DNA from: a virus
Taxonomy: Duplodnaviria > Caudoviricetes
Length of the DNA stretch: 54,601 nucleotides
Virus record (IMG/VR): IMGVR_UViG_3300036715_000254
Coordinates: 1-54,601 of that record
Strand: one strand, 5' to 3'
In this document: piece by piece, positions 3,881-51,937 of the stretch
How the letters are laid out: the number at the start of each line of letters is the position of its first letter
Numbering within the stretch: position 1 is the stretch's first letter
Made by a program: the position numbers and the translations under genes
The notes under the pieces: generated by a model
The model's database searches: none
The model's input: only the letters and a program-made list of their open reading frames with translations
Told to the model about the DNA's origin: nothing

Positions 3881-4050
3881 TTATCAATCCACAACCAAAA
3901 GACACAAGTAAGGGACATTTGCTAGTCTCGCTAGTGAAAAGTATTGTCCGTATCATCGCAGGTATTGCACTGTACAATGGGGCATTAGGAATAGCTGGAG
4001 CTTTAATTGTTGTTGCAGAAGTTCTCGGCATTCTTGAGGAATTAGTCTAA
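3877..4050 (+). CDS. Small membrane protein (57 aa)
   Basis: Hand-translated ...HLLVSLVKSIVRIIAGIAL...AEVLGILEELV; overlaps both neighbours. Confidence 0.7.
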   Translation: MIINPQPKDTSKGHLLVSLVKSIVRIIAGIALYNGALGIAGALIVVAEVLGILEELV

Positions 4051-4291: not shown

Positions 4292-4321
4292 GTTCACTTT
4301 TATTCCTTTCTGTGTTATAAT
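4292..4321 (+). promoter_or_regulatory. Early-type promoter
   Basis: TTCACT 4293-4298, 17 nt spacer, TATAAT 4316-4321. Confidence 0.85.
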
Positions 4322-4741: not shown

Positions 4742-5795
4742 AGAAGCAAAACGTATCAAAGCTCACAAGCTACTCCGTAATAATGATCCACGATTGGATC
4801 CGGATAACTATACTGTAAGCATGTTGCACATTACAAACTTCTTCAACGTTACATATGATGCGAAGGAACGCATGTCGTGGCTTCGTAGTCATTATCCCAA
4901 GACTAAGTTCAAGGATCTCCCAGATCTCGACTTTAAGACACTCTCGACTTTGGTCCGTATTGTGGACAACGGTGGCGAACTGTCTGAGAAGCACCAGATT
5001 ATCATGGATAACGAGTTGACTCGTCTGACTGATAACTCCAAGCAAGTTCAAGTAGCGACTAAGACTTTAGTAGCGACTTTAACTAAGCCAACTATCCAAG
5101 AAAAGATGGATGAGAAGGTAGCTGAATTTCTGGGTGAGTTCAACGGCTTGGTTGATCAATACACGATAGACGGAACTATTCCCAAGGTTGAATCTCTGGT
5201 TAATACAATGGGTATCCGTGGTCCGATGGTCAAGAAGGTCATGGACCGAGTCGCCAACATTACCACTGAACTTGATGAAGCGATTGAAGGTACTGACAAG
5301 CAGCTCGTTGAGGGTTACAGTAACTTCAAGAAGGTTGAGTTGAAGCGTCTCCGTGGTATCTATCAATCTCTCGCAGATGCGATGAAACAAGCCAAGGTGA
5401 CTGTTGTACGCAAAGCGCGTAAGGTAAAGGTGAAACCGCCCGCAGTTATCGCGAAAGGTGTGAAGTACGCCGCAGAGAATATTGACTTGAAGATGAAGTC
5501 AATTAACCCAGCAACCATTGTTGGTATGTCCGAACTATACGTGTTCAATGCGAAGTACCGGAAGCTGCAATACTACGAAGCAATTTCTGGTCAGACACTT
5601 ACGTTCAAGGGAACAACCCTGTTGAACTTTGATGTAAACAAATCTATGGGTAAGACTATCCGGAAGCCGGAGCTGATCAATTACTCGGATGGTAAACGTG
5701 TCCTGAATAAGTTCTTCAAGGAGACTAAGTCTACTGAGCAGAAACTGACTGGACGTATTAACGATGAATGTATCTTGTTGGTGGCGTACAAATGA
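4731..5795 (+). CDS. Conserved-type T4-like hypothetical protein
   Basis: GAGGA before ATG 4731; EGYSNF, KTIRKP, LTGRIN motifs recalled from T4-like phage proteins. Confidence 0.75.
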   Translation: MATKEAKRIKAHKLLRNNDPRLDPDNYTVSMLHITNFFNVTYDAKERMSWLRSHYPKTKFKDLPDLDFKTLSTLVRIVDNGGELSEKHQIIMDNELTRLTDNSKQVQVATKTLVATLTKPTIQEKMDEKVAEFLGEFNGLVDQYTIDGTIPKVESLVNTMGIRGPMVKKVMDRVANITTELDEAIEGTDKQLVEGYSNFKKVELKRLRGIYQSLADAMKQAKVTVVRKARKVKVKPPAVIAKGVKYAAENIDLKMKSINPATIVGMSELYVFNAKYRKLQYYEAISGQTLTFKGTTLLNFDVNKSMGKTIRKPELINYSDGKRVLNKFFKETKSTEQKLTGRINDECILLVAYK

Positions 5796-9133: not shown

Positions 9134-9952
9134 ATGGTAACAAAGAAAAAAGCTCCAGCACTCTTCGTAGCTGAGGCAATCCAAAATGGTGCTGAAACGA
9201 AATATAGTGGTGCTCAAAAGCGTATAGACCAAGTAGAAAGCGATAACCACAAAAATTATCACCAGCCAGTTAGTAACGGCCTCAAGATTAAGTTAGACCA
9301 TTTAAAGACATTTGACGCGCTGACGCCAAACCAACAAATCTTCTATGACATGTACAATCGTGGTGATTACTGTATGGGAGTATTAGGTTCCGCAGGTACT
9401 GGAAAAACGTTTATTTCCCTGTACAAAGCATTGGAAGAAGTTCTGGATAAGTCGAATCCATTCCGCCAAATGGTTGTTGTTCGCTCTTGCGTCCCAACTC
9501 GTAACGTTGGATTCTTGCCAGGTTCGTTGGAGGAGAAGCAAGAGATTTACGAACTCCCATATAAGGAAATTGCTGCTACATTGTTTGACCGTTCGGATGC
9601 TTGGGACCGTTTAAAAGAGCAAAACTATGCTCGATTCATTAGTACAACCGCTATTCGTGGTATCTCGATTGACGATTCAATTGTTGTAGTTGATGAGTTA
9701 CAAAACATGACGATGCAAGAGCTAGACACGATTATCACCCGTGTTGGTTACCGTTCCAAGATTATCTTTGTTGGTGACATAAAGCAGACAGATTTAGTAA
9801 CGTCTAAATACGATGTATCAGGATTGCCACAGTTCATTAAGATTTTGAACAACATGAATGATTACAGTGAAATTGAATTTACGAGTGACGATATTGTGAG
9901 AAGCAGTTTGGTCCGCAACTATATTATTGCCAAAGAGTGTATGGGGTATTAA
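9134..9952 (+). CDS. phoH: PhoH-family ATPase
   Basis: GSAGTGKT, GFLPG, RGISI, DELQN, GDIKQTD, DIVRS. Confidence 0.95.
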   Translation: MVTKKKAPALFVAEAIQNGAETKYSGAQKRIDQVESDNHKNYHQPVSNGLKIKLDHLKTFDALTPNQQIFYDMYNRGDYCMGVLGSAGTGKTFISLYKALEEVLDKSNPFRQMVVVRSCVPTRNVGFLPGSLEEKQEIYELPYKEIAATLFDRSDAWDRLKEQNYARFISTTAIRGISIDDSIVVVDELQNMTMQELDTIITRVGYRSKIIFVGDIKQTDLVTSKYDVSGLPQFIKILNNMNDYSEIEFTSDDIVRSSLVRNYIIAKECMGY

Positions 9953-9953
9953 A

Positions 9954-10556
9954 ATGATCACTTTAGATCAATTTGTGGCGATTCTGCCACAGTGTAACGA
10001 GCCAGAAGAATGGTGTGAGATTATCGCTAGTGAACTTCCGGAATGGGGTTTCGAAACAAGAGAACAGGTAGCGGGATTTATCGCACAAACTGCTCATGAG
10101 TCGTCATCTTATAATATATTGGCTGAGAATTTGAATTATAGTGGTGACCGGCTTGCTGTTGTATTTCCGAAATATTTTAAGAACGTTGATGTTAAGCCAT
10201 ATCACCGAAATCCTCAAGCTATTGCTAATCGTGTTTATGCTAATCGCATGGGTAACGGCAATGCTGATTCTGGTGACGGTTATCGCTTTAGGGGACGCGG
10301 TGTACTTCAAGTCACAGGAAAAGCGAACTACATGCACTGTAGTCAAGAGCTCTTTGGGCAAGAAGAGGTTCTTCTAGACGACCCGGACTTGCTTCTACAT
10401 AAGCCAAATGCTTTAGGTAGTGCATTATGGTTCTGGAAAGCTAACAATCTATTGTCAGTAACTGACTTCATATTGTTGACTAAGAAGATCAATGGTGGTA
10501 CGATTGGACTAGAACATCGTCAGTCAATCTATAACAAAGCACTTTCTATTCTTTGA
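9954..10556 (+). CDS. Glycoside hydrolase family 19 endolysin
   Basis: AQTAHES, ENLNYS, RFRGRGVLQVTGKANY, INGG motifs. Confidence 0.9.
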   Translation: MITLDQFVAILPQCNEPEEWCEIIASELPEWGFETREQVAGFIAQTAHESSSYNILAENLNYSGDRLAVVFPKYFKNVDVKPYHRNPQAIANRVYANRMGNGNADSGDGYRFRGRGVLQVTGKANYMHCSQELFGQEEVLLDDPDLLLHKPNALGSALWFWKANNLLSVTDFILLTKKINGGTIGLEHRQSIYNKALSIL

Positions 10557-10568
10557 ACTCACAGAGTA

Positions 10569-10601
10569 ATTATAGCAAAACTTTCTCAGACTCCAAATAA
10601 T
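10569..10601 (-). promoter_or_regulatory. Antisense promoter pointing into the endolysin 3' end
   Basis: Minus strand ATTATTTGGA-N17-TATAAT with extended TG; same geometry at 41286-41319. Confidence 0.7.
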
Positions 10602-10607
10602 GTTATG

Positions 10608-10640
10608 TTATTTGGAGTTTTCCTTTGAGTGTGTTATATT
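10608..10640 (+). promoter_or_regulatory. TTATTTGGA-box promoter for the exonuclease
   Basis: TTATTTGGA 10608-10616, TGtTATATT 10632-10640; ATG at 10646. Confidence 0.65.
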
Positions 10641-10645
10641 ACAAT

Positions 10646-11296
10646 ATGGCTCAATTTGTTGTATATGATATTCCTGTCTGCGAACAGATAAACTCTGAAT
10701 CTGGGCGGCGCTACAAGACACCTAACGGTGACATCTACCCAAGCGTCACGACAGTCTTGTCCAGCATACCAATGCCGTTTATAGATAACTGGCGACGTAA
10801 AGTGGGCGAAGAGACAGCTAAGAAGATTAGCGATGCAGCCGCCAAACGAGGAAGTAAGATCCATGGTTGGTGTGAGCAATATCTCATGAAACAAGCGATA
10901 ACACATTCCCCATTTGAACACGAAGCAACGATGATGTTCAAGAACATGAAACCGGAGCTGGACAAGTTTGATGAGGTCCATGCACTGGAAACACGTCTAT
11001 GGAGCGACAAACTCCGGGTTGCTGGTACTGTGGACTGTATCGCTAAGATTGATGGCGTTTTCTACATAGTCGATTTTAAGACGTCAAGACAGCTCAAGAA
11101 CCGGGCTGATATCCCCTCTTATTTCATGCAATGTGCCGCTTATGCTGTTGCTTGGTACGAAAGAACGGGGATTGCTATAGCGAAAATGCGGGTAATAATT
11201 ACTACACAAGATTACGGTGTGCTAGTATTTGATGAGAACGTTAAGGATTGGGTTCCACAGTTTATTGAGCTACGGAAGAAGTTCGATTCACTTTAA
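10646..11296 (+). CDS. PD-(D/E)XK exonuclease (RecB/Cas4-like)
   Basis: YPSVTTVL, RGSKIH, AGTVDC, IVDFKTS, QCAAYA. Confidence 0.9.
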   Translation: MAQFVVYDIPVCEQINSESGRRYKTPNGDIYPSVTTVLSSIPMPFIDNWRRKVGEETAKKISDAAAKRGSKIHGWCEQYLMKQAITHSPFEHEATMMFKNMKPELDKFDEVHALETRLWSDKLRVAGTVDCIAKIDGVFYIVDFKTSRQLKNRADIPSYFMQCAAYAVAWYERTGIAIAKMRVIITTQDYGVLVFDENVKDWVPQFIELRKKFDSL

Positions 11297-11315
11297 TTCC
11301 TTTCTGTGTTATAAT
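11287..11315 (+). promoter_or_regulatory. Early-type promoter
   Basis: TTCACT 11287-11292, 17 nt spacer, TATAAT 11310-11315. Confidence 0.85.
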
Positions 11316-17524: not shown

Positions 17525-17532
17525 TATAAATA
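17525..17532 (+). promoter_or_regulatory. T4 late promoter TATAAATA
   Basis: Exact consensus before AAGGAG and ATG 17549. Confidence 0.7.
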
Positions 17533-24121: not shown

Positions 24122-26176
24122 ATGATCTACGGCGGCTCAATTCTTGGTGGAACAGTTCTAGCAGGTGCTTCACCAGATGCCGCATCAGTTACAAACACGA
24201 ACGTAGCAATCACTGGCAACGAATTAGCCAGCGCAATCGGAACTTTAACCACAAGTTCAACACAATCTCAAATATTAGCAGGAACACAATCAGTAATCAG
24301 TACTGGTGTAGAAGTTCCATCTCAAGCACTTTCCCAACCAATCTATAGTGCTGTTAGTAATGGTGTAATTGGGGCTATTGTAGCAATTACCAGCTATAAT
24401 CAAGCGATAACCGGCACTATCGTAGCAGTTAGTCCTGGTAGTCTAGTTAACTTTTCCGCCGTTACTATTGGACTAACATCTGCTGCAATATCCACAGCTA
24501 TTAATAGTGTTGGTAAAGATTTGTTGTTAGCACTAGTTGGTAATAGTTCAACTGTATCTATTGGCAGCCCAGCTAGCAGTGGCAATGTGAGTATCATGCT
24601 AAGTGGTAATTCTAGTGCTCTGACAGTTAATTCAGTGAATAACAGTGTCGCAGTTAGCGTGGCGATATCCAATGTTGTGGTGACTGTGTCACCTGGTACT
24701 GCCATACCAGCCGGTACGGTATCAGTCGCATTGACTGGAAACAGTTCTGCATTAACAGTGAATTTGCTAATTAACAGTGCTATTGTTAACGTGCAAATTC
24801 CAAGTTATGTAATCACAACTGCACTTGGATCTGTAGCAACTGCTGGTTCAGCAACATTTGCAATAACAGGTAATACAGTAACCTCAGCAGTTAATGGTCT
24901 CGCGCTATCTAGTGTTAAAACATTTGCGATTAGCGGTAATAGCAGTGCAAGCACAATCAACTTAGTTACAAATACCACTCAATACAGTAAGGCTATTACT
25001 GGAAATAGTTCTGCGACTGCGATCAATTCGCTAGCTGTAACAAGTATTGTATCACAATTGCTAAGTGGAACAAGCATTTCCGGAACTATTGGATCGGTTG
25101 GAAACGCATCATCCGTATCAATTGCGCTAGCTGGAAACGCAGCATTTGGTGTGGCTGGAAGTGTTAGCTTTGGTACTAACGTTTCTATAGGTCTTGTTAG
25201 TATAAGTGCTAACGGAAATGTCGGAAATGCCACAAATAGTATGACAGTTTCGTTACCAATCGCTGGTGTGTTGAGTACACTAAGCACCGGTGTAACAGTT
25301 GGCAGCGGTAACTTTAGTCGTTCAATATCCGGAGTTATATCTAATAGTGCAGTTGGTATAATCGGATTTACATCTAATTTAACCCGCGCATTAAATTCAA
25401 CAAGCATATTTATTATTGCGGGTAACGTAGGAACTGCTGGTAACTCGACTATCACCATCACTGGTGTGTCGAATATATTTGACATTGGAACCCTTGATGT
25501 TCGTAGTGACAAGACTATCGCAATCAGTAGTGTTCAATCTAGTGCTGCCATCAACAGCGTAAGCAACTCAAGTAACATAGATATTGGTATTTCCGGTGGT
25601 TTCATTATATCAGTATTGTCTGACGAAATTTCTAGCACAAATTATACCCGCTCAATTAACAGCGTAAACCTTGTCATATCCGTTGGAAATATTGATTTTG
25701 TAACTGATAAGTTTACTTCCATTAGTGGAAATGCTACTGATACGTTTACAAATTCGTTAACTAAAAATACCACCCAGACGCAAGCCTTAATAGGCGTTGC
25801 TACTACTGTGGAACATGGGAACTTAACTGTACAAGATCCAAACGTGACAATCGGATTGACTGGACGTTTTGCTACAATGTGGCAAGGTTATTATGGTGGA
25901 ATAGGTGTCGTTGATGTTCCAAATTCACTATATCCAACATCGGAAGATAAACCAGCACATGTAACAACTCCAGATGCTAACAAGATTGTCGCAAGTGGAA
26001 CCGATAAGCCAACAAGTGCGACACCAAACACAACCACTAAATATAGTGTCAGCGGCTCTAATTCGCCAAGAACTACGGTTACATCTGCTCCAAACAACCG
26101 AGCAAATATTAGCAATAGTCGGGTAAAAATTACAGTAACAACTGATGACATTAAGAAACTCGAACTAATCGACTAA
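24122..26176 (+). CDS. Long fibre/shaft protein with ~22-aa Ser/Gly/Thr repeats
   Basis: Repeating (I/L)(T/S)GNSS...(I/V)NS(V/L) units; few charged residues. Confidence 0.75.
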   Translation: MIYGGSILGGTVLAGASPDAASVTNTNVAITGNELASAIGTLTTSSTQSQILAGTQSVISTGVEVPSQALSQPIYSAVSNGVIGAIVAITSYNQAITGTIVAVSPGSLVNFSAVTIGLTSAAISTAINSVGKDLLLALVGNSSTVSIGSPASSGNVSIMLSGNSSALTVNSVNNSVAVSVAISNVVVTVSPGTAIPAGTVSVALTGNSSALTVNLLINSAIVNVQIPSYVITTALGSVATAGSATFAITGNTVTSAVNGLALSSVKTFAISGNSSASTINLVTNTTQYSKAITGNSSATAINSLAVTSIVSQLLSGTSISGTIGSVGNASSVSIALAGNAAFGVAGSVSFGTNVSIGLVSISANGNVGNATNSMTVSLPIAGVLSTLSTGVTVGSGNFSRSISGVISNSAVGIIGFTSNLTRALNSTSIFIIAGNVGTAGNSTITITGVSNIFDIGTLDVRSDKTIAISSVQSSAAINSVSNSSNIDIGISGGFIISVLSDEISSTNYTRSINSVNLVISVGNIDFVTDKFTSISGNATDTFTNSLTKNTTQTQALIGVATTVEHGNLTVQDPNVTIGLTGRFATMWQGYYGGIGVVDVPNSLYPTSEDKPAHVTTPDANKIVASGTDKPTSATPNTTTKYSVSGSNSPRTTVTSAPNNRANISNSRVKITVTTDDIKKLELID

Positions 26177-30908: not shown

Positions 30909-33496
30909 TGACAGCTTTTGTTGCTAATAACGGCACACTTAATTATTTTGATGCGTATTCTGGTGGATCAGTAATTGCGACTCTTGATACATACACGATT
31001 AGTAACAGTTCAACTTTAGTTGTTCGAACAGATAGTAACGCATGTGCTAATCACTCAGTTGCTTTTGGTTCACTTGATACAGTATCTTTTACGGGTACTG
31101 GGGGTGAGTTACGTTTTGACTCAACCTATGTGCGTGTTGTTGCTTATACTGGTGGATCCGGTAACAGCCCAGCTTTTGGTGCTGCTATTTCTCAAGGTGG
31201 TGTGAGTGGTGTATTTCTTGGCGCTTGGACTAACTGGGCATCGGAATGTATTGTTCCTGGCGCTGCTATTGGCGCTACCGGATATATCAAAATTGGTGGT
31301 GTAACTGGTGGTGCGTTTGCAGCAGGTACGCTGACTGGTATTATAGCAACTTGCTCCGGACCTGATGTTCAAGGATGGATTGAAGTTCGCGGCGATACTA
31401 TTGCGACAATTACTGTTCCACGTATTGGTAAAGTAACTTCCGTTGAAGCATGGTATGAATTGGGTACTACAAACGGAGCTCGTGGACAAATTCTAGATTG
31501 TCCAACTTGTGCAACCAACGCGGGTGTATTTCCCGGTGTTTGGATTGAAACTTCCGCTGGATCTGGAGTTTATGAGCAATATGCGGGTGTTGGTTCACAG
31601 GTTGCTTTATCAACAACTGCTACTGACGTTCGTGCAAAGTGGATTTGGTCCACTGTTACTGGTATTCGCATTGGTAATGACGGTACCAATGCGGTTGGTT
31701 TCTTACCTCCTGCAGGCTGCAGGGTACGCATTCCAGCAACTATCTTGACCAACAGTACCCGCACATCATCGGGCACGGGCCCGCGGGTATTACCTAACGC
31801 GACTATTGCTACTCGTCAAGAATTGGTGACGACTGGTGCTGGTTACTTTGATTTGCGTGGTTGCGTCATTCAATGGTACATGAACTTCAGCCAGGCGTTT
31901 TACGCCAAATACAAAAGCTGTGCGATCAATGACTCAATGATCTTGTCAGAAATCGCATCGCCTATAGACGTTGACGATTGCATCGTGTCTCCGACACAGG
32001 CTCAATTGAACCTTGCCGCCAACTTTTCATCCTGCTTTGCCGGTGGAACTATCAGCAATACTCGCTTTGTGCGCTTCTCGCTGGCGGCGGCTTCAGCCTA
32101 CGCGGCGCAGATCAACTACCTGACAGGGCAAACGTTCAGCAATGTGAGTTTTGAAAGTCTGACGCTTCGGGCCAATGCTTCCACAGGCACCATCACTTCT
32201 ACTCAGGCGGTGAACTGCACTTTCACCAATTGTACCCTATTGGGTGCGCGCGGATTGTTTGTAAGCGCACAGCGTTGCACCTTCAACAACACGACCTACT
32301 ACGACCACAGCATCACTACAACCACTACCAGCACCAACCCTATGTCTGGGCTGGACTTCACGACTGGATGTTCTGGTAACACGGTCAACGGCTGGTCGAT
32401 GCCGATGCCAAACTTCGGACCCTACAACGGTCTAGTTTCAGTGAATGCTTGCTACAGCACGCTGGTTAAGAACATTGGCACAGACTCGGTGAGCACGCTG
32501 GCTATGAATGCCGCAGTAACGGGCGCTGGCGTCAATGGTGTGGGTAACAATGATGGAATCACTATCAAGCGCATGTACTTAACCAACACGCGCACAGGTC
32601 CGTATTCCTTTGTCAACTCGGACACAAACGTTCTGATTGAGAACTGCCGAGGTGACTACGCTGATACATCAGTCATGGTGGCGCTGAATGCCACTTACAA
32701 GAACTGCGGTCTGACTGCTTCTGCAACCGGGCAAGTCTCGGTCTATGGAACCCATTGGGGTACACGTTTCACCAGCACAACTGCTGGATTCTTGGACTTG
32801 CTTTGCAACGAGCCTACTGCTAGTAGCGCAGCCCAATGCTCCGTTACTGGAGGAGCACCACAGTTTGACTCAAACGGATCTGTACTACTGACAAAAGCTG
32901 GTGACCAAGTGACTTGGGAAATGTCATTCTACGCTATCGGATACACTGCATTTACTAATGCTCTGACAACAGCAACTGGAACTAACGTTACATGGACATC
33001 TGGCTCAACTTGGGGTAACCATACAATTGAATTTGCAATTAATACTGGTTCTGGATACGGTGCTTGGACTGCACTGAACGCCGTTAACTTGAGTGCTGAT
33101 ACTTTTAATAGTACCACTGGTTTCAAGCTGAAGATTCGTGCCACTACACTAACACCAGCTTCTAGCAATATACTAACTCGTCTATCAATTCCGCTAACAA
33201 CCACAAGTTCTGATCAACAGACAAAATTATACCCACTATCCGTAAACACTATTACATTTACTGGTTTACCTACTGGATGTGATGTGGTTGTATTGACTGC
33301 TGGAACATCAACTATTCTTGATCAAGTTGATGCATTAGCAGCAACAAGTTATTCTTACACCTATTCGGGTGCTCAAAATATTGACATTGGATTTATTCAA
33401 TCAGGATATGTTCCTTACTACATTCGAAATATTCCGCTTGGAACTGCTGACTCGAGCATTCCAGTCGCTTTGACTGTGGACCGTAATTATATATAA
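30908..33496 (+). CDS. Large structural protein with central beta-helix-like region
   Basis: NCTFTNC, CTFNN, CSGNTV repeats; Gly/Thr-rich. Confidence 0.7.
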   Translation: MTAFVANNGTLNYFDAYSGGSVIATLDTYTISNSSTLVVRTDSNACANHSVAFGSLDTVSFTGTGGELRFDSTYVRVVAYTGGSGNSPAFGAAISQGGVSGVFLGAWTNWASECIVPGAAIGATGYIKIGGVTGGAFAAGTLTGIIATCSGPDVQGWIEVRGDTIATITVPRIGKVTSVEAWYELGTTNGARGQILDCPTCATNAGVFPGVWIETSAGSGVYEQYAGVGSQVALSTTATDVRAKWIWSTVTGIRIGNDGTNAVGFLPPAGCRVRIPATILTNSTRTSSGTGPRVLPNATIATRQELVTTGAGYFDLRGCVIQWYMNFSQAFYAKYKSCAINDSMILSEIASPIDVDDCIVSPTQAQLNLAANFSSCFAGGTISNTRFVRFSLAAASAYAAQINYLTGQTFSNVSFESLTLRANASTGTITSTQAVNCTFTNCTLLGARGLFVSAQRCTFNNTTYYDHSITTTTTSTNPMSGLDFTTGCSGNTVNGWSMPMPNFGPYNGLVSVNACYSTLVKNIGTDSVSTLAMNAAVTGAGVNGVGNNDGITIKRMYLTNTRTGPYSFVNSDTNVLIENCRGDYADTSVMVALNATYKNCGLTASATGQVSVYGTHWGTRFTSTTAGFLDLLCNEPTASSAAQCSVTGGAPQFDSNGSVLLTKAGDQVTWEMSFYAIGYTAFTNALTTATGTNVTWTSGSTWGNHTIEFAINTGSGYGAWTALNAVNLSADTFNSTTGFKLKIRATTLTPASSNILTRLSIPLTTTSSDQQTKLYPLSVNTITFTGLPTGCDVVVLTAGTSTILDQVDALAATSYSYTYSGAQNIDIGFIQSGYVPYYIRNIPLGTADSSIPVALTVDRNYI

Positions 33497-33523: not shown

Positions 33524-35161
33524 ATGGCGAAAATTACTAGTAAAGCACTATTAAACGTAGGAACAGAGCTCACTATCGACGAAACGCTAAAGACCATTAC
33601 TCTTAACGTTGCGGGTAATTTGGTTGCTAAAGACGGTGTTACCCTACAAGCACTATACTCTAAATTGGTAGATTTGTGGGCGACTATAACATACCAAGAT
33701 AGTCCATTCCCAATGTACGCGATTGACGCGTTATCCGGACAATTTCAATTCGGTACTGACGGTGCAACATATTCAGGTTGGAAGCCAGCTAATGACACTA
33801 CTCGCGAAATGCTGCGTGACGGTGGTTGGTCGGAATATAACTCAACGGGTGTTTTGGCACGTCAATATACTGGTATTGTAGGTCTGGGTGTTGTATCTGC
33901 AGGTTCTCAATTGTACTGGCAAAAGACTTCTACTGGCGCTCCAACTAACTTCACCTTCACTGACCAATGTAACGAAGGTATCCAAGTTTACGGTAACATT
34001 ACCGCGGATGCGACTACAACAACATTTGATGACCGTACATTCTTCAAGACATTCGTTCGTGAATACCAAAAGAAATACAAAGACTCCGTTCTGGCTGATA
34101 CTGGTAAAACAGCAACTGGCGCGTATTTGGTTAACATGTTGCTATCCAACGAAAATGACTTGGATATTACTGTAGCGGACGCATCTATTGGTACATCACC
34201 ATACTCTGAAATCAACGTAAAGTATTTCAGCCAAGCATTCAGCAAGGCAGTTGATATTACTGGTGGTACAGCACGTGACTTTGGTATTGTTATTGACGTT
34301 GGTACTCACTCTGGTGTTGACGGTGTATCCAATGGTACTACTACATTTACTACAGCAGCAGCAGGTATTACTGGTGCTAACTACACTGGTGGTACACTGA
34401 TTGTTCACGAAGGTGCTGGAAAAGGCACATACACAATTTCTGGTACACCAGCGGCTGATTCTATTACAACCACGGTTGCAGTTTCTGGTTCAGCTTCTGG
34501 ATTGAGCTTTACATTGCAACGTGCAACACCTGTTGCAACTTCTCTACAGCAAATCTATACAAAGATCCAGTATCTGTTGCGTCAAAACAGCAACATTAAT
34601 GCTGTTAGTGGTGGTACATCAGTTACTGGTAAAACTGCATCTATTCTGTTGAACTTTGTTGGTTCTGCTCTGAAGGCTGGTTTCTACGCTCCAACAAACC
34701 CAGCGGGTGGTGGCACTGGTGTTACTATTATGGGTTACGCAACTGCGGACACAAATAGCTTCACTTCATATGATAACACAGCAGCGACACGTGATTATCC
34801 ATATGCTGCGGCTGGTACAATTAGCTTCAACACCCCATTAGTTGGAGCAGGTTCTAGCTACCGTCTGATGTTTACTACACCCCCTGGCGCTGGTAATGAC
34901 TACGGCGAATCTGGAGCAATTACTGTAAACAACGCATCAGGAACTCCAATTACTGGAACTATCAGTTCCGCAAGTATTGCTTTCGATTACGACTATGATG
35001 GTAATGTACAGGGTGGTTTTACCGGCGGTACGGATCGTCCAGTTACTCTAATTGGTATTAAACCCGGTGCTGGTAAGTTTGTGGTAGCTACTGGTTCGTT
35101 AAATCGTAGCAAAACTATTGCACTATCACTTGTTGCAGAACAAGATAGAGTCTATTCTTGA
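33524..35161 (+). CDS. Virion structural protein
   Basis: Late promoter, strongly biased codons, Thr/Gly-rich. Confidence 0.75.
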   Translation: MAKITSKALLNVGTELTIDETLKTITLNVAGNLVAKDGVTLQALYSKLVDLWATITYQDSPFPMYAIDALSGQFQFGTDGATYSGWKPANDTTREMLRDGGWSEYNSTGVLARQYTGIVGLGVVSAGSQLYWQKTSTGAPTNFTFTDQCNEGIQVYGNITADATTTTFDDRTFFKTFVREYQKKYKDSVLADTGKTATGAYLVNMLLSNENDLDITVADASIGTSPYSEINVKYFSQAFSKAVDITGGTARDFGIVIDVGTHSGVDGVSNGTTTFTTAAAGITGANYTGGTLIVHEGAGKGTYTISGTPAADSITTTVAVSGSASGLSFTLQRATPVATSLQQIYTKIQYLLRQNSNINAVSGGTSVTGKTASILLNFVGSALKAGFYAPTNPAGGGTGVTIMGYATADTNSFTSYDNTAATRDYPYAAAGTISFNTPLVGAGSSYRLMFTTPPGAGNDYGESGAITVNNASGTPITGTISSASIAFDYDYDGNVQGGFTGGTDRPVTLIGIKPGAGKFVVATGSLNRSKTIALSLVAEQDRVYS

Positions 35162-35719: not shown

Positions 35720-36343
35720 ATGTTTGATCACAAGAATTTAGCAACAGGAGGATTATATCCAGGTCAAGTAACTCATCGTTCCATTGCTAATCTTGGTACA
35801 TTTGAGTTTGATGTTTCTATTACCGAAATTCCAATTAATGGAAATATCAGTAGTTTTGTACCAGGAAACGTTGCGAGTAGTTCTCTTCTAAGTCGTTTAA
35901 TTACTGGTCTATTTGGATCCGGATCTACTGGAAGTATTACTGGTTCCAGTGCCACATCTAGTAATGTTAGCGGTAATCAGACTACTGGTGAAGTTGGTAG
36001 TGTTAGTTACAGCGGAACTGGAAATGTAACACTTCCAATTTCGAGTAACTTAGTACGCGGGTTCGTGGGAACCACTGTAGCTTACGGTGGGGATTTAATT
36101 GAAATCCAAGGTGGTGGTGGCGGATACGGGTTTAACTTCGGATCCGATAGTTATAAATATAAAGTAAAAATACGGATTACCCGTAAAGGTAAGACGTGGG
36201 AATATGAGACAATAGTCGGGCAAACTACCGCAAAAGTGCTTGCCAAAGTAATTAAGAAAAGAGTAGAAGCACCGACTGTTTCATTAGTTAATACATCGAT
36301 GGTTGAGAGCGTAGAACCAATTATTAAGGTCACGAAAAGATGA
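35720..36343 (+). CDS. Hypothetical structural protein
   Basis: Gly/Ser-rich centre resembling the 24122 repeats. Confidence 0.6.
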   Translation: MFDHKNLATGGLYPGQVTHRSIANLGTFEFDVSITEIPINGNISSFVPGNVASSSLLSRLITGLFGSGSTGSITGSSATSSNVSGNQTTGEVGSVSYSGTGNVTLPISSNLVRGFVGTTVAYGGDLIEIQGGGGGYGFNFGSDSYKYKVKIRITRKGKTWEYETIVGQTTAKVLAKVIKKRVEAPTVSLVNTSMVESVEPIIKVTKR

Positions 36344-39888: not shown

Positions 39889-40634
39889 GAATAGTCGACA
39901 ACATTATTGCGCTTCGTATCCTATGGTTGCTAATTACACCATTTGAGAAGACTGACGCATTCAAGTTAGGACTAATTGATGATCAAGGAACGTTTCTCCG
40001 TAAAGCAAAAACCCCCGCTGAGGTAAACTCGTCCTCAATGTTGCACCGTTTAGTGTGGCGCATTAAGAAGTTTATCAACATGGTTCCGGGCGGCTCAACT
40101 AAAATTGGTTCGCTTGTTGCAGCTTACGCTCTGGTACGTGAGTGTATAGAACGTGATACTTATCTTCCCGAAACAGAACAGTTAAACGAATCCTATATGG
40201 CAACTCCAGTTGAACCTTTCGATATGGATTTGATTAAACATTTCTTTGCTATCATGGAAGATGGTGTCCCGACTAATGTGACTGGAAACGCAGTCGCTAC
40301 AGATACACCAAAGATTAAAGCACGTCGCGCAAAAGGTACGTTTACAGTTAAGCGTGAAACATTTGACAAGTTTAAAAGCGGAAAAGCAAAGTTTCGTCGT
40401 TGGGGTCATTATCTTAACCTAGATGATGACGTGGACCGCGAAGTGTATCACTACGCTAAAAAGAATCCACGCGGTATCCTTGTATTACAAGACGAAGAGG
40501 GTCGAACAAAAGGCGTTCGATACTCTAAACACGGTGGTGGAAACTGGCACGGTATCAAGCGTAAACCAAAGCAGGTTGTTGAGTCATATCTTAATGATTT
40601 AGATACTGAAATGGAAGTGATTGACTTGTGCTAA
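39885..40634 (+). CDS. Conserved-type T4-like hypothetical protein
   Basis: TPFEKTDAFKLGLID..G; HRLVWRIKK. Confidence 0.7.
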   Translation: MRIVDNIIALRILWLLITPFEKTDAFKLGLIDDQGTFLRKAKTPAEVNSSSMLHRLVWRIKKFINMVPGGSTKIGSLVAAYALVRECIERDTYLPETEQLNESYMATPVEPFDMDLIKHFFAIMEDGVPTNVTGNAVATDTPKIKARRAKGTFTVKRETFDKFKSGKAKFRRWGHYLNLDDDVDREVYHYAKKNPRGILVLQDEEGRTKGVRYSKHGGGNWHGIKRKPKQVVESYLNDLDTEMEVIDLC

Positions 40635-41260
40635 ATATATTCAGCTGGTTTACTAACGAACTTATCTACTCGCTAATCGTTCCTGGAATTGGGATTGGAG
40701 TAGTTCTATTGCTAATAGCGGAATTTGTTCCGGATTGGCTAAAACAATATCGTATTCAAGCACAGCTCCTTGGTTTAATAATCTGTATCTTTTTCACATT
40801 CCAATCTGGGCGTGAACATGAGTTTGACAATCAAAAATTAGTACTCGCAGAACAAAAAGCCCTAGTAGAACAATACAAAACAAAATCGGGCGAAGTTACG
40901 ATTGAAGTCCAGACTAAGTATGTGGACAAAATTAAATATGTTGAACGAATTAAAGAGGTACCAGTAAATGTTTATGTTACTAAAGAAGCTGATTCTAAGT
41001 GCGTCATTGATCCTGTCACTTCTGATGGTATCCGGTTGCTGCTCGACAGTTCCATTGCAGGGCAACTTCCCAAAGCCTCCACCGGAACTAATGAAGGTTC
41101 CACCAATGCTGAAACCACTACCGGTATCCAACTAAAGCTATCAACTATTGTAGCATCTGCTAAAGAAAACTATGCTACATCGTATCAAATACGTGAACAG
41201 TTAATCAGTTTACAAGAGTGGATAACAAAGCAAGACAAACTGTACAACAGTACCAAATAG
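40628..41260 (+). CDS. Rz-like inner-membrane spanin
   Basis: N-terminal TM segments, coiled coil, TKYVDK...VYV...ADSKC, C-terminal NY...EQL..LQEW pattern of Rz-like lysis proteins. Confidence 0.7.
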   Translation: MLNIFSWFTNELIYSLIVPGIGIGVVLLLIAEFVPDWLKQYRIQAQLLGLIICIFFTFQSGREHEFDNQKLVLAEQKALVEQYKTKSGEVTIEVQTKYVDKIKYVERIKEVPVNVYVTKEADSKCVIDPVTSDGIRLLLDSSIAGQLPKASTGTNEGSTNAETTTGIQLKLSTIVASAKENYATSYQIREQLISLQEWITKQDKLYNSTK

Positions 41261-41285
41261 TCTATTGCTGAGATCCTACAGAGGA

Positions 41286-41319
41286 ATTATAGCAAATATT
41301 TTCATGTATCCAAAATAAT
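41286..41319 (-). promoter_or_regulatory. Antisense promoter pointing into the spanin 3' end
   Basis: Minus strand ATTATTTTGGA-N17-TATAAT with extended TG. Confidence 0.7.
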
Positions 41320-41327
41320 GTTCTAGA

Positions 41328-41359
41328 TTATTTTGGATAGTGATTTGTTTGTTTATAAT
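41328..41359 (+). promoter_or_regulatory. TTATTTTGGA-box promoter for primase
   Basis: TTATTTTGGA 41328-41337, TATAAT 41354-41359; ATG 41366. Confidence 0.7.
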
Positions 41360-41365
41360 GGGAAC

Positions 41366-42373
41366 ATGATAGACATGTTCAAACTAACCTCGTATGCAAA
41401 TCGCGTAGGAGTATATCTTAAAAACTTCAAGCAAAAGAAAGCACGACTCTGGGAATTTAGCCATTCTTGCGAGGTTCAGCACGGCTTCAAATCTCTCAAG
41501 AAACGTGGCTATATTTACCAAACCACGGATGGAAAATCACTGAATGTTAAGTGTCAACACTGTGGTTACAGTAAAAGTCTGCCTAATTTCATACGAGAAA
41601 TTTCCCCCTCTTTATATGATGAGTTTCGGCTAGAAGCGTACCGAGACACGGATCCAGTTCGTGAGATTGTAAAAGAAGAGCAGATTCCAATTCCGGATGT
41701 AAACTTGGATGGATTAATTCCAGTAATTAGTTTGCCGCCGAGCTCACCCGTGTTAAAATTCCTGGAGAGACGATGTATCCCGAAGGAACATTATGATAAG
41801 CTGTATGTTGCGAAGCAATTTTATGATTGGGCAACGCAATACAAGCCGGAGTTTAAGGATTCGAAAGACAAAAGCCCAAGACTAGTAATTCCATACTTTC
41901 ATGACAATCGCGTCATTGGCTTTACATGTCGAACGTTTAACCCAAGCGTTGAACCTCGATATATACACTTACGGATAGACAAGAGAGTAGAATTTATATA
42001 TGGCACGGATCGAATCAATACTAACAAGAAAATCTATGTTGTTGAGGGAAATATTGATAGTCTTTTTCTTGATAATGCAATTGCTATTGGTGGGGCTCAT
42101 TATCATTTGGGATACCTCCAACAACACAAAAATAATTGCGTTATCATTCCTGATAGCGACTGGCGTCGCAATAAACAAGTGGGTGAGCAGCTACGTAAAG
42201 CAATTGAGTCTGGCTATCACGTCGCTTTCATGCCAGCTAGACTACGAGGCAAAGACATTAACGACTGGGTTAAAAACGGACTCACTAAATATCAACTCCA
42301 GCAAATAATCCAAGAAAACACAAAGCGAGGGCTAACAGCAAAGCTCGAGTTTTCTATTCTTAAAAAATACTAA
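41366..42373 (+). CDS. gp61: DNA primase (T4 gp61-like)
   Basis: CQHCG zinc motif, RLVIPY, YVVEG.IDSLF TOPRIM, KDIND. Confidence 0.92.
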   Translation: MIDMFKLTSYANRVGVYLKNFKQKKARLWEFSHSCEVQHGFKSLKKRGYIYQTTDGKSLNVKCQHCGYSKSLPNFIREISPSLYDEFRLEAYRDTDPVREIVKEEQIPIPDVNLDGLIPVISLPPSSPVLKFLERRCIPKEHYDKLYVAKQFYDWATQYKPEFKDSKDKSPRLVIPYFHDNRVIGFTCRTFNPSVEPRYIHLRIDKRVEFIYGTDRINTNKKIYVVEGNIDSLFLDNAIAIGGAHYHLGYLQQHKNNCVIIPDSDWRRNKQVGEQLRKAIESGYHVAFMPARLRGKDINDWVKNGLTKYQLQQIIQENTKRGLTAKLEFSILKKY

Positions 42374-51444: not shown

Positions 51445-51918
51445 ATGTATTACCTCAAACCCTACATTCTTGGTGAAGTCGCCGACGTTAAATTCTCATT
51501 GAGCGATGCCTGGGATATTTTTGAGCAGCTAGGTATTCTTGATCGCGGAGAAATTGGTGAGAAAGCAGTTGTCAACAAAATGAATGCTAAAAAAGCAAAG
51601 ACGGGTCAAAAAGGTTGGGATCTCACTAAGAGAAATAAATTATTTGAAGTTAAAACATTGACAATCGGCACTGTAATGAATAACGGTTATCCGCGACGCC
51701 GTTGCAATGCAATAGTTACTCATAAAATTGGGACATTGTTGGTTATGGCTGAATGCAACAAATCCGGTAATGTAACCTACATACGCATTCCTTATTCCGC
51801 TTATAAAGGAATGCGTGGACTGACGTTTGATTTTGATGGATCCGGAAAGATGAAAACTACCAGCCGTTGGTATCCTTTTCAAGTAGGATCTTTTGAAGAA
51901 CTGTGTGGTTCACTTTAA
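51445..51918 (+). CDS. Putative PD-(D/E)XK endonuclease
   Basis: GEIGE...QKGWDL...FEVKT. Confidence 0.65.
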   Translation: MYYLKPYILGEVADVKFSLSDAWDIFEQLGILDRGEIGEKAVVNKMNAKKAKTGQKGWDLTKRNKLFEVKTLTIGTVMNNGYPRRRCNAIVTHKIGTLLVMAECNKSGNVTYIRIPYSAYKGMRGLTFDFDGSGKMKTTSRWYPFQVGSFEELCGSL

Positions 51919-51937
51919 TTCGTTTCTGTGTTATAAT
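51908..51937 (+). promoter_or_regulatory. Early-type promoter
   Basis: TTCACT 51909-51914, 17 nt spacer, TATAAT 51932-51937. Confidence 0.85.

Follow-up and report, generated by a model that had tools for sequence, protein, structure and literature searches.

A recurrent intergenic cassette with two promoter-like faces in an uncultured, apparently T4-like phage

Introduction

Repeated intergenic elements that join a stem-loop to a promoter have been described in T4-type phages as PeSL cassettes, in which an A/T-rich region, a stem-loop, a sigma-70-like early promoter, a ribosome-binding site and a start codon are combined, and for which both promoter and terminator activity were experimentally measured (PMC2839356, PMC4122927). 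The present analysis concerns an element of this general kind, an intergenic cassette of about 90 nucleotides (nt) that is found in two copies in the IMG/VR virus record IMGVR_UViG_3300036715_000254. The window, by which we mean the whole stretch of DNA that was analysed, is this entire record (54,601 bases, with a completeness estimate of 30%). Copy A (10558-10648) lies between the genes for a GH19 endolysin and a PD-(D/E)XK exonuclease, and copy B (41277-41368) lies at the junction of a candidate spanin gene and a DNA primase gene.

Further described systems bear on how such a cassette might work. In LUZ19 and other phiKMV-like phages a conserved antisense promoter has been mapped by ONT-cappable-seq, and it was proposed to halt run-on transcription into the wrong temporal class (PMC10914365). 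In T4 itself, the read-through mRNAs of genes e, soc, 49 and I-TevI are silenced by structure (PMC3014915), and among the cyanophage-type relatives of T4, which lack motA and asiA, an antisense RNA named CfrI is known (PMC2984593).

Set beside these systems, the cassette is read here, with a probability of roughly one half, as a boundary unit, that is, as a variant of the PeSL-like terminator/promoter element with a putative antisense face and a predicted leaderless sense face. The phage that carries it appears to be an uncultured T4-like phage, distant from Melnitz and from the cyanophage-type myoviruses, because its primase is of the gp61 type with a best identity among cultured phages of about 33% (Methylophilales phage Melnitz, cyanomyoviruses), and because the primase gene is followed by a gene for a B12-dependent ribonucleotide reductase in a gene order that matches Melnitz. 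T4-like phages usually keep early and late genes on separate strands; in the window every long open reading frame (ORF) lies on the plus strand. The DNA of the window occurs in microbial-mat and sediment sequencing runs, and the contigs of the 4 runs listed with the copy B locus, when aligned to 40600-42000, show no differences. A nucleotide search among cultured phages returned no match.

Recurrence of the cassette

The recurrence of the cassette is non-random. Copies A and B share a box of 19 nt, in which 18 positions are identical and one is free, and this box occurs twice in the window, with 0 mismatches in each case (up to 3 were allowed) and an expectation of 0.13 occurrences; two or more occurrences were seen in 0 of 100 shuffles. 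A BLAST search of the copy B locus against its own record likewise returned copy A (83% over 44 nt, E-value 6.7e-5). The original prediction had described copy B as an inverted repeat that separates a minus-strand promoter from a plus-strand -10 hexamer set just ahead of the primase start codon, and had taken it for the second of two such pairs in the window. Its coordinates for copy B were all borne out on the sequence, as were the recurrence of the promoter-like pair (in copies A and B), the 7-nt spacing of the arms at both window loci, and the occurrence of the same 8-nt stretch downstream of both minus-strand -10s. The arms themselves, which had been given as 12 nt, proved to be perfect over 13 nt in copy B. 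The proposed minus-strand geometry is retained in every one of the five copies that are now known from two phages, and the leaderless-type placement of the sense -10, predicted for copy B, recurs at 5-7 nt from the ATG in four of the five (the A of the ATG being the 6th-8th nt past the hexamer, and the 7th in copy B).

The other copies come from a related phage, a complete IMG/VR record of 164,769 nt (G001), whose primase, exonuclease and endolysin are 61%, 55% and 83% identical to those of the window; a few near-identical fragments of that phage were also recovered. G001 contains three copies, two of which occupy junctions orthologous to those of the window (endolysin/exonuclease and spanin/primase), with the third placed between uvsW.1 and gp55. 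A search of the window and G001 with a profile of the five copies recovered exactly those five (E-values 6.6e-12 to 5.5e-9), the next hit having an E-value of 0.52. Between orthologous copies the spacers have fully diverged, and only the left box, the A/T cores, the sense -10 and the start codon have been retained.

Searches for the cassette elsewhere led back to the same phage. The exact box was found in 3 stretches of IMG/VR, all of which lack the hairpin and are thus regarded as chance matches, and the pattern of box plus hairpin was found there in 5 stretches, all of the G001-type phage and none of any other lineage. The primase, used to look for relatives, yielded 3 loci, of which only the G001 type is close, and an alignment of the primase against metagenome contigs (587 pattern stretches) gave no relatives. 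Among 57 endolysin loci the cassette was present in 2, both of the G001 type; a looser DNA pattern matched at least 115 stretches of metagenome contigs and, among the matches listed, 2 fit the profile, again both of the G001 type. The covariance models of Rfam 15 gave 0 matches at E-values up to 1 in the five loci, which include all five copies and comprise 15,923 bases searched on both strands. As a separate observation, a third exact copy of the 10-nt string formed by the TG-extended -10 lies on the minus strand of the window at 31340-31349, inside a large gene and devoid of the other cassette features, and it is probably there by chance.

The two promoter-like faces

Across the five copies, the putative leftward promoter is the best conserved part of the cassette. 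Its -10 is a perfect hexamer in all five copies and is preceded by a TG extension in three, both window copies among them; an invariant block of 4 nt begins after a further 4 nt, and the 7th nt past the hexamer is a G throughout. Both window copies therefore combine a consensus -10, a TG and a purine at the 7th nt, as extended -10 promoters of the sigma-70 type do. On each face the A/T-only core of the palindrome stands 19-20 nt from the -10 in all five copies, and the outer portions of the arms in copy B coincide with the -35-like hexamers of the two faces (41314-41309 on the minus strand, 41332-41337 on the plus strand).

The phage offers its own standard of comparison in a family of four plus-strand promoter-like sequences (Table 1), in each of which a -35-like hexamer is separated by 17 nt from a TG-extended perfect -10, with a conserved start block 5 nt further on and then a short leader that contains a ribosome-binding site. 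The family probably represents the main early promoters of the phage, and the minus face of the cassette appears to follow the same rules. The sense face of copy B matches the start block of this family exactly, which places its predicted start on the A of the ATG. The T4 late-promoter octamer was not found inside the cassette. Elsewhere in the window, between copies A and B, exact T4-type late-promoter octamers occur on the plus strand at 17525 and 33492, with a ribosome-binding site and an ATG about 20 nt downstream, and these are probably late promoters; a third, at 36152 (plus strand), is intragenic.

The sense -10 is more variable, with 6, 6, 5, 5 and 4 of 6 matches to the consensus across the five copies and a TG extension in four of them. 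In four copies there is no space for a Shine-Dalgarno sequence between the hexamer and the ATG, and the gp55 copy has a leader of 13 nt that includes one. At the primase junction the first four residues of the protein are kept between the window and G001 through synonymous changes, so that the first ATG can be taken as the true start. A plus-strand mini-ORF running from the left box to the hairpin arm was considered and rejected by eye, since a canonical start codon is lacking and the purine-rich stretch lies too near the point where it would start.

Leaderless starts may be common in these phages beyond the cassette. Early-family promoters with an ATG 5-7 nt past the -10, opening an ORF of 73-174 amino acids, were noted on the plus strand of G001 at 34234, 37329, 40548, 125072, 144895 and 161273 and in the window at 51932. 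In Melnitz (MZ577097.1, about 25975-26016; locus L087, about 4975-5017) the annotated primase start directly follows a -10-like hexamer, which a 17-nt spacer separates from a consensus -35, and a ribosome-binding site is lacking. A primase mRNA without a leader may be a wider trait of this group of phages.

A strong promoter that serves no gene of its own and is present in about three copies per genome might also be imagined to prime replication by way of an R-loop, as is the case for oriF and oriG of T4; origins of that phage consist of a promoter with a downstream unwinding element, and one of them depends on an early-type promoter (PMC3016281). For the minus face such a role is highly improbable. 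It fails because the DNA past the predicted minus start lacks an A+T-rich unwinding element, the A+T content of the first 50 nt being 0.58-0.66 and so within about 1 standard deviation (0.07) of the genome means of 0.58-0.60, and the cumulative GC skew shows no turn at either window copy.

The hairpin

Between the two faces lies the palindrome, which in copy A reaches about 13 pairs when extended and has a T-rich run behind it. The hairpins of the window are predicted to be more stable in the plus sense (-15.8 kcal/mol for copy B and -16.4 kcal/mol for copy A, with z-scores of -4.8 and -5.1) than in the minus sense (-12.5 and -11.5 kcal/mol, respectively). The cassettes as a whole have an A+T content of 0.69-0.77, and the A/T-only core of each arm, 6-7 nt in length, is invariant in all five copies even where the outer stem has been lost. 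That outer stem consists of 6-8 contiguous pairs maintained through double-sided changes in three of the five copies (A, B and the G001 exonuclease copy), with six pairs in copy B and seven in copy A, one of the latter a G.U pair in the plus sense; the primase and gp55 copies of G001 have one outer pair only. These pairs were counted in a register set by hand, as the MAFFT alignment of the hairpins is not in structural register. G.U pairs, which in the minus-sense RNA become mismatches, are present in copy A and the gp55 copy as well as in the G001 exonuclease copy, together with a near-identical strain variant of the latter. It appears, then, that pairing of the plus-sense RNA is selected at some copies, which would fit a terminator or attenuator, and copy A and the G001 exonuclease copy have 3-5 G-C pairs and a T-rich tail. 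A terminator scan listed no copy of the cassette. The original prediction had allowed that the element might act only as a terminator hairpin, a view that does not hold, because the invariant parts are independent of the stem: in two G001 copies the hairpin has decayed, and the promoter-like boxes have been kept.

The invariance of the A/T core in the absence of the outer stem, together with its fixed distance from both -10s, would also suit an operator at which a dimeric regulator of phage or host origin controls the flanking promoters. We consider this improbable, as the loop varies from 5 to 7 nt, the outer stem covaries without conservation of its sequence, and an A/T-rich stretch upstream of the -35 is ordinary in PeSL and T4 early promoters (PMC2839356). 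No candidate for such a regulator emerged; profiles for the MotA C-terminal domain and AsiA had no match in G001 or the window, but the control genomes were equally silent, so that the absence of these proteins does not follow.

An additional small hairpin is seen in two of the three G001 copies, after the stop codon of the upstream gene and ahead of the left box (locus L008, about 3898-3921; locus L012, about 1478-1499). Its stem core is identical in the two and its loop is conserved, and neither window copy has it. A hammerhead or box C/D identity for the loop was considered and set aside, as Rfam gave no support and the feature is not in the window.

Neighbouring genes and the lysis link

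The genes beside the cassette are listed in Table 1. For the gene to the left of copy B, the earlier suggestion of an Rz-like spanin is plausible in the form of a pair, and of moderate strength, given the transmembrane segment, the embedded lipoprotein-like frame and weak Rz-like PHROG matches. The G001 orthologue of the i-spanin candidate has a weak Rz-like match (E-value 0.019). The embedded o-spanin candidate has a lipoprotein-like N-terminus, hydrophobic and followed by a Cys, with 9 Pro in 55 residues, and its frame is conserved in G001, where it again has a weak Rz-like PHROG match (E-value 2e-5). The arrangement of the frames differs between the phages: in the G001-type phage (locus L008, 3258-3894) the i-spanin frame ends at 171 amino acids, and the embedded lipoprotein frame continues to 92 amino acids and carries the C-terminal part of the i-spanin of the window (PHROG 4952 match at residues 52-91). 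This difference is either a real fused form or an assembly error.

At the other junction an antisense ORF of about 40 amino acids opposite the 3' end of the endolysin gene (minus strand, leftwards from 10471 in the window and from 160274 in G001) is common to both phages. As a real product it was rejected; it lacks a ribosome-binding site, lies opposite an endolysin that is 83% identical between the phages, and is probably a by-product.

The original prediction had further paired the cassette with lysis genes on its left, and had proposed that a genome-wide scan be made for other copies beside lysis genes or at the ends of late operons. In the complete G001 genome one of three copies breaks this link: it follows uvsY, uvsW and a uvsW.1-like gene and precedes the gene for the late sigma factor gp55, after which comes a gp47-like nuclease gene. 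The cassette is therefore not tied to lysis genes, and by the criterion that the original prediction had set for itself a link to lysis genes or late-operon ends is not general. The gp55 gene of the window phage lies outside the fragment analysed. To its right, by comparison, the genes belong to the replication, recombination or late-transcription class at all three junction types, and in T4 such genes fall into the early and middle classes. A few kilobases upstream of the uvsY-uvsW block, G001 also has a gene for an HNH or homing-endonuclease-like protein of 489 amino acids (91655-93124, plus strand).

A lysis gene does stand upstream of both window copies and of two of the three G001 copies, and T4 is known to block early translation of its lysozyme, by another route (PMC3014915), so that one might suppose that the antisense RNAs serve to keep the genes for endolysin and spanin silent up to the late phase of infection. 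Such a timer is quite unlikely, not only in view of the gp55 copy but also because the predicted antisense RNAs show no conservation past the first few bases. Beside holin-like genes no cassette was found, but holins were neither identified nor searched for. The antisense transcript, if it is made, is in our reading not a lysis-specific timer.

Table 1. Positions of the cassette elements, adjoining genes and early promoter family in the window
Feature	Position	Strand	Remarks
Copy A: GH19 endolysin, left of the cassette	9927-10556	+	PHROG 181, E-value 2.9e-65; Pfam Glyco_hydro_19
Copy A: left box	10561-10578	-	-10 at 10574-10569 with TG extension; predicted start 10562
Copy A: palindrome	10590-10618	.	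11-nt arms 10590-10600 / 10608-10618; 7-nt loop
Copy A: sense -10	10635-10640	+	5/6 to consensus; TG extension; 5 nt before ATG
Copy A: PD-(D/E)XK exonuclease, right of the cassette	10646-11296	+	PHROG 298, E-value 5e-66; Pfam PDDEXK_1
Copy B: i-spanin candidate, left of the cassette	40628-41260	+	PHROG 4952, E-value 1e-20; hydrophobic N-terminal segment, about residues 10-40
Copy B: embedded o-spanin candidate, 55 amino acids, other frame	40968-41135	+	Rz-like spanin PHROG 3198, E-value 4e-4
Copy B: left box, putative minus-face promoter core	41278-41295	-	invariant 4-nt start region 41278-41281
Copy B: minus-face -10	41291-41286	-	perfect hexamer; TG extension 41294-41293; predicted start 41279
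Copy B: minus-face -35-like hexamer	41314-41309	-	17-nt spacer to -10; inside palindrome arm
Copy B: palindrome	41307-41339	.	perfect 13-nt arms 41307-41319 / 41327-41339; 7-nt loop
Copy B: T-rich tail 3' of the hairpin, also sense-promoter spacer	41340-41353	+	weak as terminator tail
Copy B: sense -10	41354-41359	+	perfect consensus; 6 nt before primase ATG 41366
Copy B: gp61-type DNA primase	41366-42373	+	no Shine-Dalgarno; PHROG 47, E-value 6e-52
Early promoter family, four copies	18-46; 4293-4321; 11287-11315; 51909-51937	+	

A proposed mechanism and its difficulties

If the cassette is a boundary unit, its parts might act together as follows. Transcripts arriving from the left would meet the plus-sense hairpin which, where its outer stem is intact, would end or attenuate the upstream transcription unit. 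The rightward promoter would start transcription at, or within 1-2 bases of, the A of the ATG and so produce a leaderless mRNA. In read-through RNA the hairpin and the mirrored -10 regions could lengthen into a helix just 5' of the start codon, and, since no Shine-Dalgarno sequence precedes the gene, such RNA would presumably be poorly translated; on the model of the T4 genes e, soc, 49 and I-TevI, only RNA started within the cassette would be used. The leftward promoter, whose antisense face is probably functional, would most likely fire into the 3' end of the upstream gene, and the antisense transcript would most likely insulate the boundary, whether by running into read-through polymerases or by base pairing to the mRNA of the upstream gene at its 3' end.

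A more ambitious version of this scheme is unlikely. In it the cassette would be a two-faced reset module at the boundaries of temporal classes in T4-like phages with all their genes on one strand, combining transcription and translation in a way not described for T4-type phages. The host polymerase would make an early 'anti-late' antisense RNA that silences and insulates the preceding genes, the endolysin and spanin genes included, and the sense mRNAs, being leaderless, would confine translation of the replication and late-sigma genes to transcripts started in the cassette. A literature search for 'anti-late' RNA together with T4 returned no papers.

A number of observations weigh against the boundary unit. 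One stems from the folding of the cassette: the mirrored -10s are complementary by construction, and consequently a long plus-sense hairpin might by itself give rise to the minus-strand -10. In copies A, B and the G001 primase copy the fold of the whole cassette does contain a long helix between the left box and the sense -10 region. Minimum free energies of the whole cassettes range from -17.5 to -31.4 kcal/mol, with z-scores of -3.7, -4.7, -4.2, -6.9 and -1.8, and when the spacers alone were shuffled 38 of 1000 shuffles, summed over the five copies, folded as well as the real sequences or better, which is borderline. One could thus propose an ordinary terminator-plus-promoter whose left box is kept by its pairing in a long silencing or terminating hairpin, the look of a promoter being incidental. 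We regard this as possible but doubtful. It would account for the helix in three copies, with the G001 exonuclease copy folding strongly in a different shape, and for G.U pairs that suit the plus sense only, and the same logic operates at the T4 genes e, soc, 49 and I-TevI (PMC3014915). It does not readily explain why the left hexamer stays perfect where its partner, the sense -10, has drifted from 6/6 to as few as 4/6 matches. This lack of covariation implies that the left box does more than follow the sequence with which it pairs. The invariant 4-nt start block, with its G at the 7th nt, has no consistent partner in the whole-cassette folds, and the spacer shuffles that folded at least as well as the real sequence, counted copy by copy, were 171, 70, 110, 700 and 101 per 1000, none of them significant. 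The gp55 copy folds no better than shuffles (z-score -1.79) and has nevertheless kept its left box. Taken together, these features argue for a constraint on the left box that would be independent of pairing, although the promoter look of the minus strand could in part be a by-product of the long hairpin.

Other difficulties concern termination. Two of the G001 hairpins are weak, at about -5 kcal/mol or absent from the minimum-energy fold, and copy B has 2 G-C pairs and a broken tail that makes a poor U-tract, so that terminator action is not general among the copies. Nor was a terminator-like site found on the minus strand in the roughly 1.2 kb that lie leftward of each window copy, and no antisense ORF is common to all copies. 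A scan for the sigma-70 consensus listed neither face of either window copy, because the -35-like hexamers match at only 3 of 6 positions; promoters were scored against that consensus, from which the promoter rules of the host may differ. Finally, the carriers of the cassette are two phage species with few and related copies, and none of the 4 sequencing runs listed with the locus is of RNA, which counts against the boundary unit and the lysis timer alike.

Comparison with known systems

A lineage with its genes on one strand and with no recognisable MotA or AsiA (the profile controls being silent) raises the question of how temporal classes are kept apart. If they function as proposed, the stop signal, the mirror-image antisense promoter and the sense promoter that runs into the start codon would together constitute a compact answer. 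They would also add leaderless translation to the regulatory toolkit of T4-type phages. If the sense half alone works, the element would be an ordinary terminator/promoter cassette, mainly of use for marking transcription units when uncultured phages related to the Melnitz and cyanophage group are annotated.

The likeness to LUZ19 lies in genes confined to one strand and in an opposite-facing promoter that is conserved among relatives and has a similar proposed role (PMC10914365). The LUZ19 promoter is present in a single copy, has a mapped start and is read by the single-subunit polymerase of the phage, whereas the promoter proposed here is of the host sigma-70 type, occurs in several copies, is paired with a sense promoter and is predicted from the sequence. 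With CfrI of cyanophage S-PM2 the cassette would share an antisense transcript in a T4-like lineage without motA and asiA (PMC2984593). CfrI, however, is one mapped RNA, about 225 nt long, which lies opposite psbA and a homing endonuclease gene, and it has neither a repeated cassette nor a paired sense promoter.

A different part of the scheme has its counterpart at the T4 genes e, soc, 49 and I-TevI, where transcripts derived from upstream carry a helix at the translation start, and those started internally lack the helix and are translated (PMC3014915). There the internal promoters belong to the late class and ribosome-binding sites are present on the mRNAs, whereas the internal promoter of the present cassette is of the early type and its mRNA is predicted to be leaderless; the helix predicted here, moreover, stops 5-7 nt before the AUG and does not cover it.

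The closest resemblance remains that to PeSL (PMC2839356, PMC4122927). Both are repeated intergenic cassettes of a T4-type genome in which an A/T-rich region and a stem-loop lie upstream of, or overlap, the -35 of a sigma-70-like early promoter, predicted in the present case, with the start codon of the next gene at the 3' end, and in PeSL the stem-loop is thought to stop upstream transcription. The perfect arms of 11 and 13 nt in the window and the A/T core of all five copies correspond to the stem-loop and the A/T-rich region. The stem is A/T-rich here and G/C-rich in PeSL, and the present cassette has a second, better conserved -10 that faces the opposite way; the main text of PMC2839356 contains no mention of bidirectional, antisense, opposite strand or words beginning with palindrom-. 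PeSL is described as occurring in many copies, in hyperplastic regions beside indels and small variable ORFs. The present cassette, in contrast, has 3 copies in a complete genome of 164.8 kb and 2 in the 54.6-kb window, all at core-gene junctions and with no signs of indels or shuffling. The lack of a ribosome-binding site in four of five copies (the gp55 copy having one), the small number of copies, their location at core-gene junctions and the added antisense face make the cassette a variant of PeSL and not a member of it. What is already known, on this comparison, is the PeSL-like union of a stem-loop with a promoter; what appears to be new is the putative antisense face and the missing ribosome-binding site.

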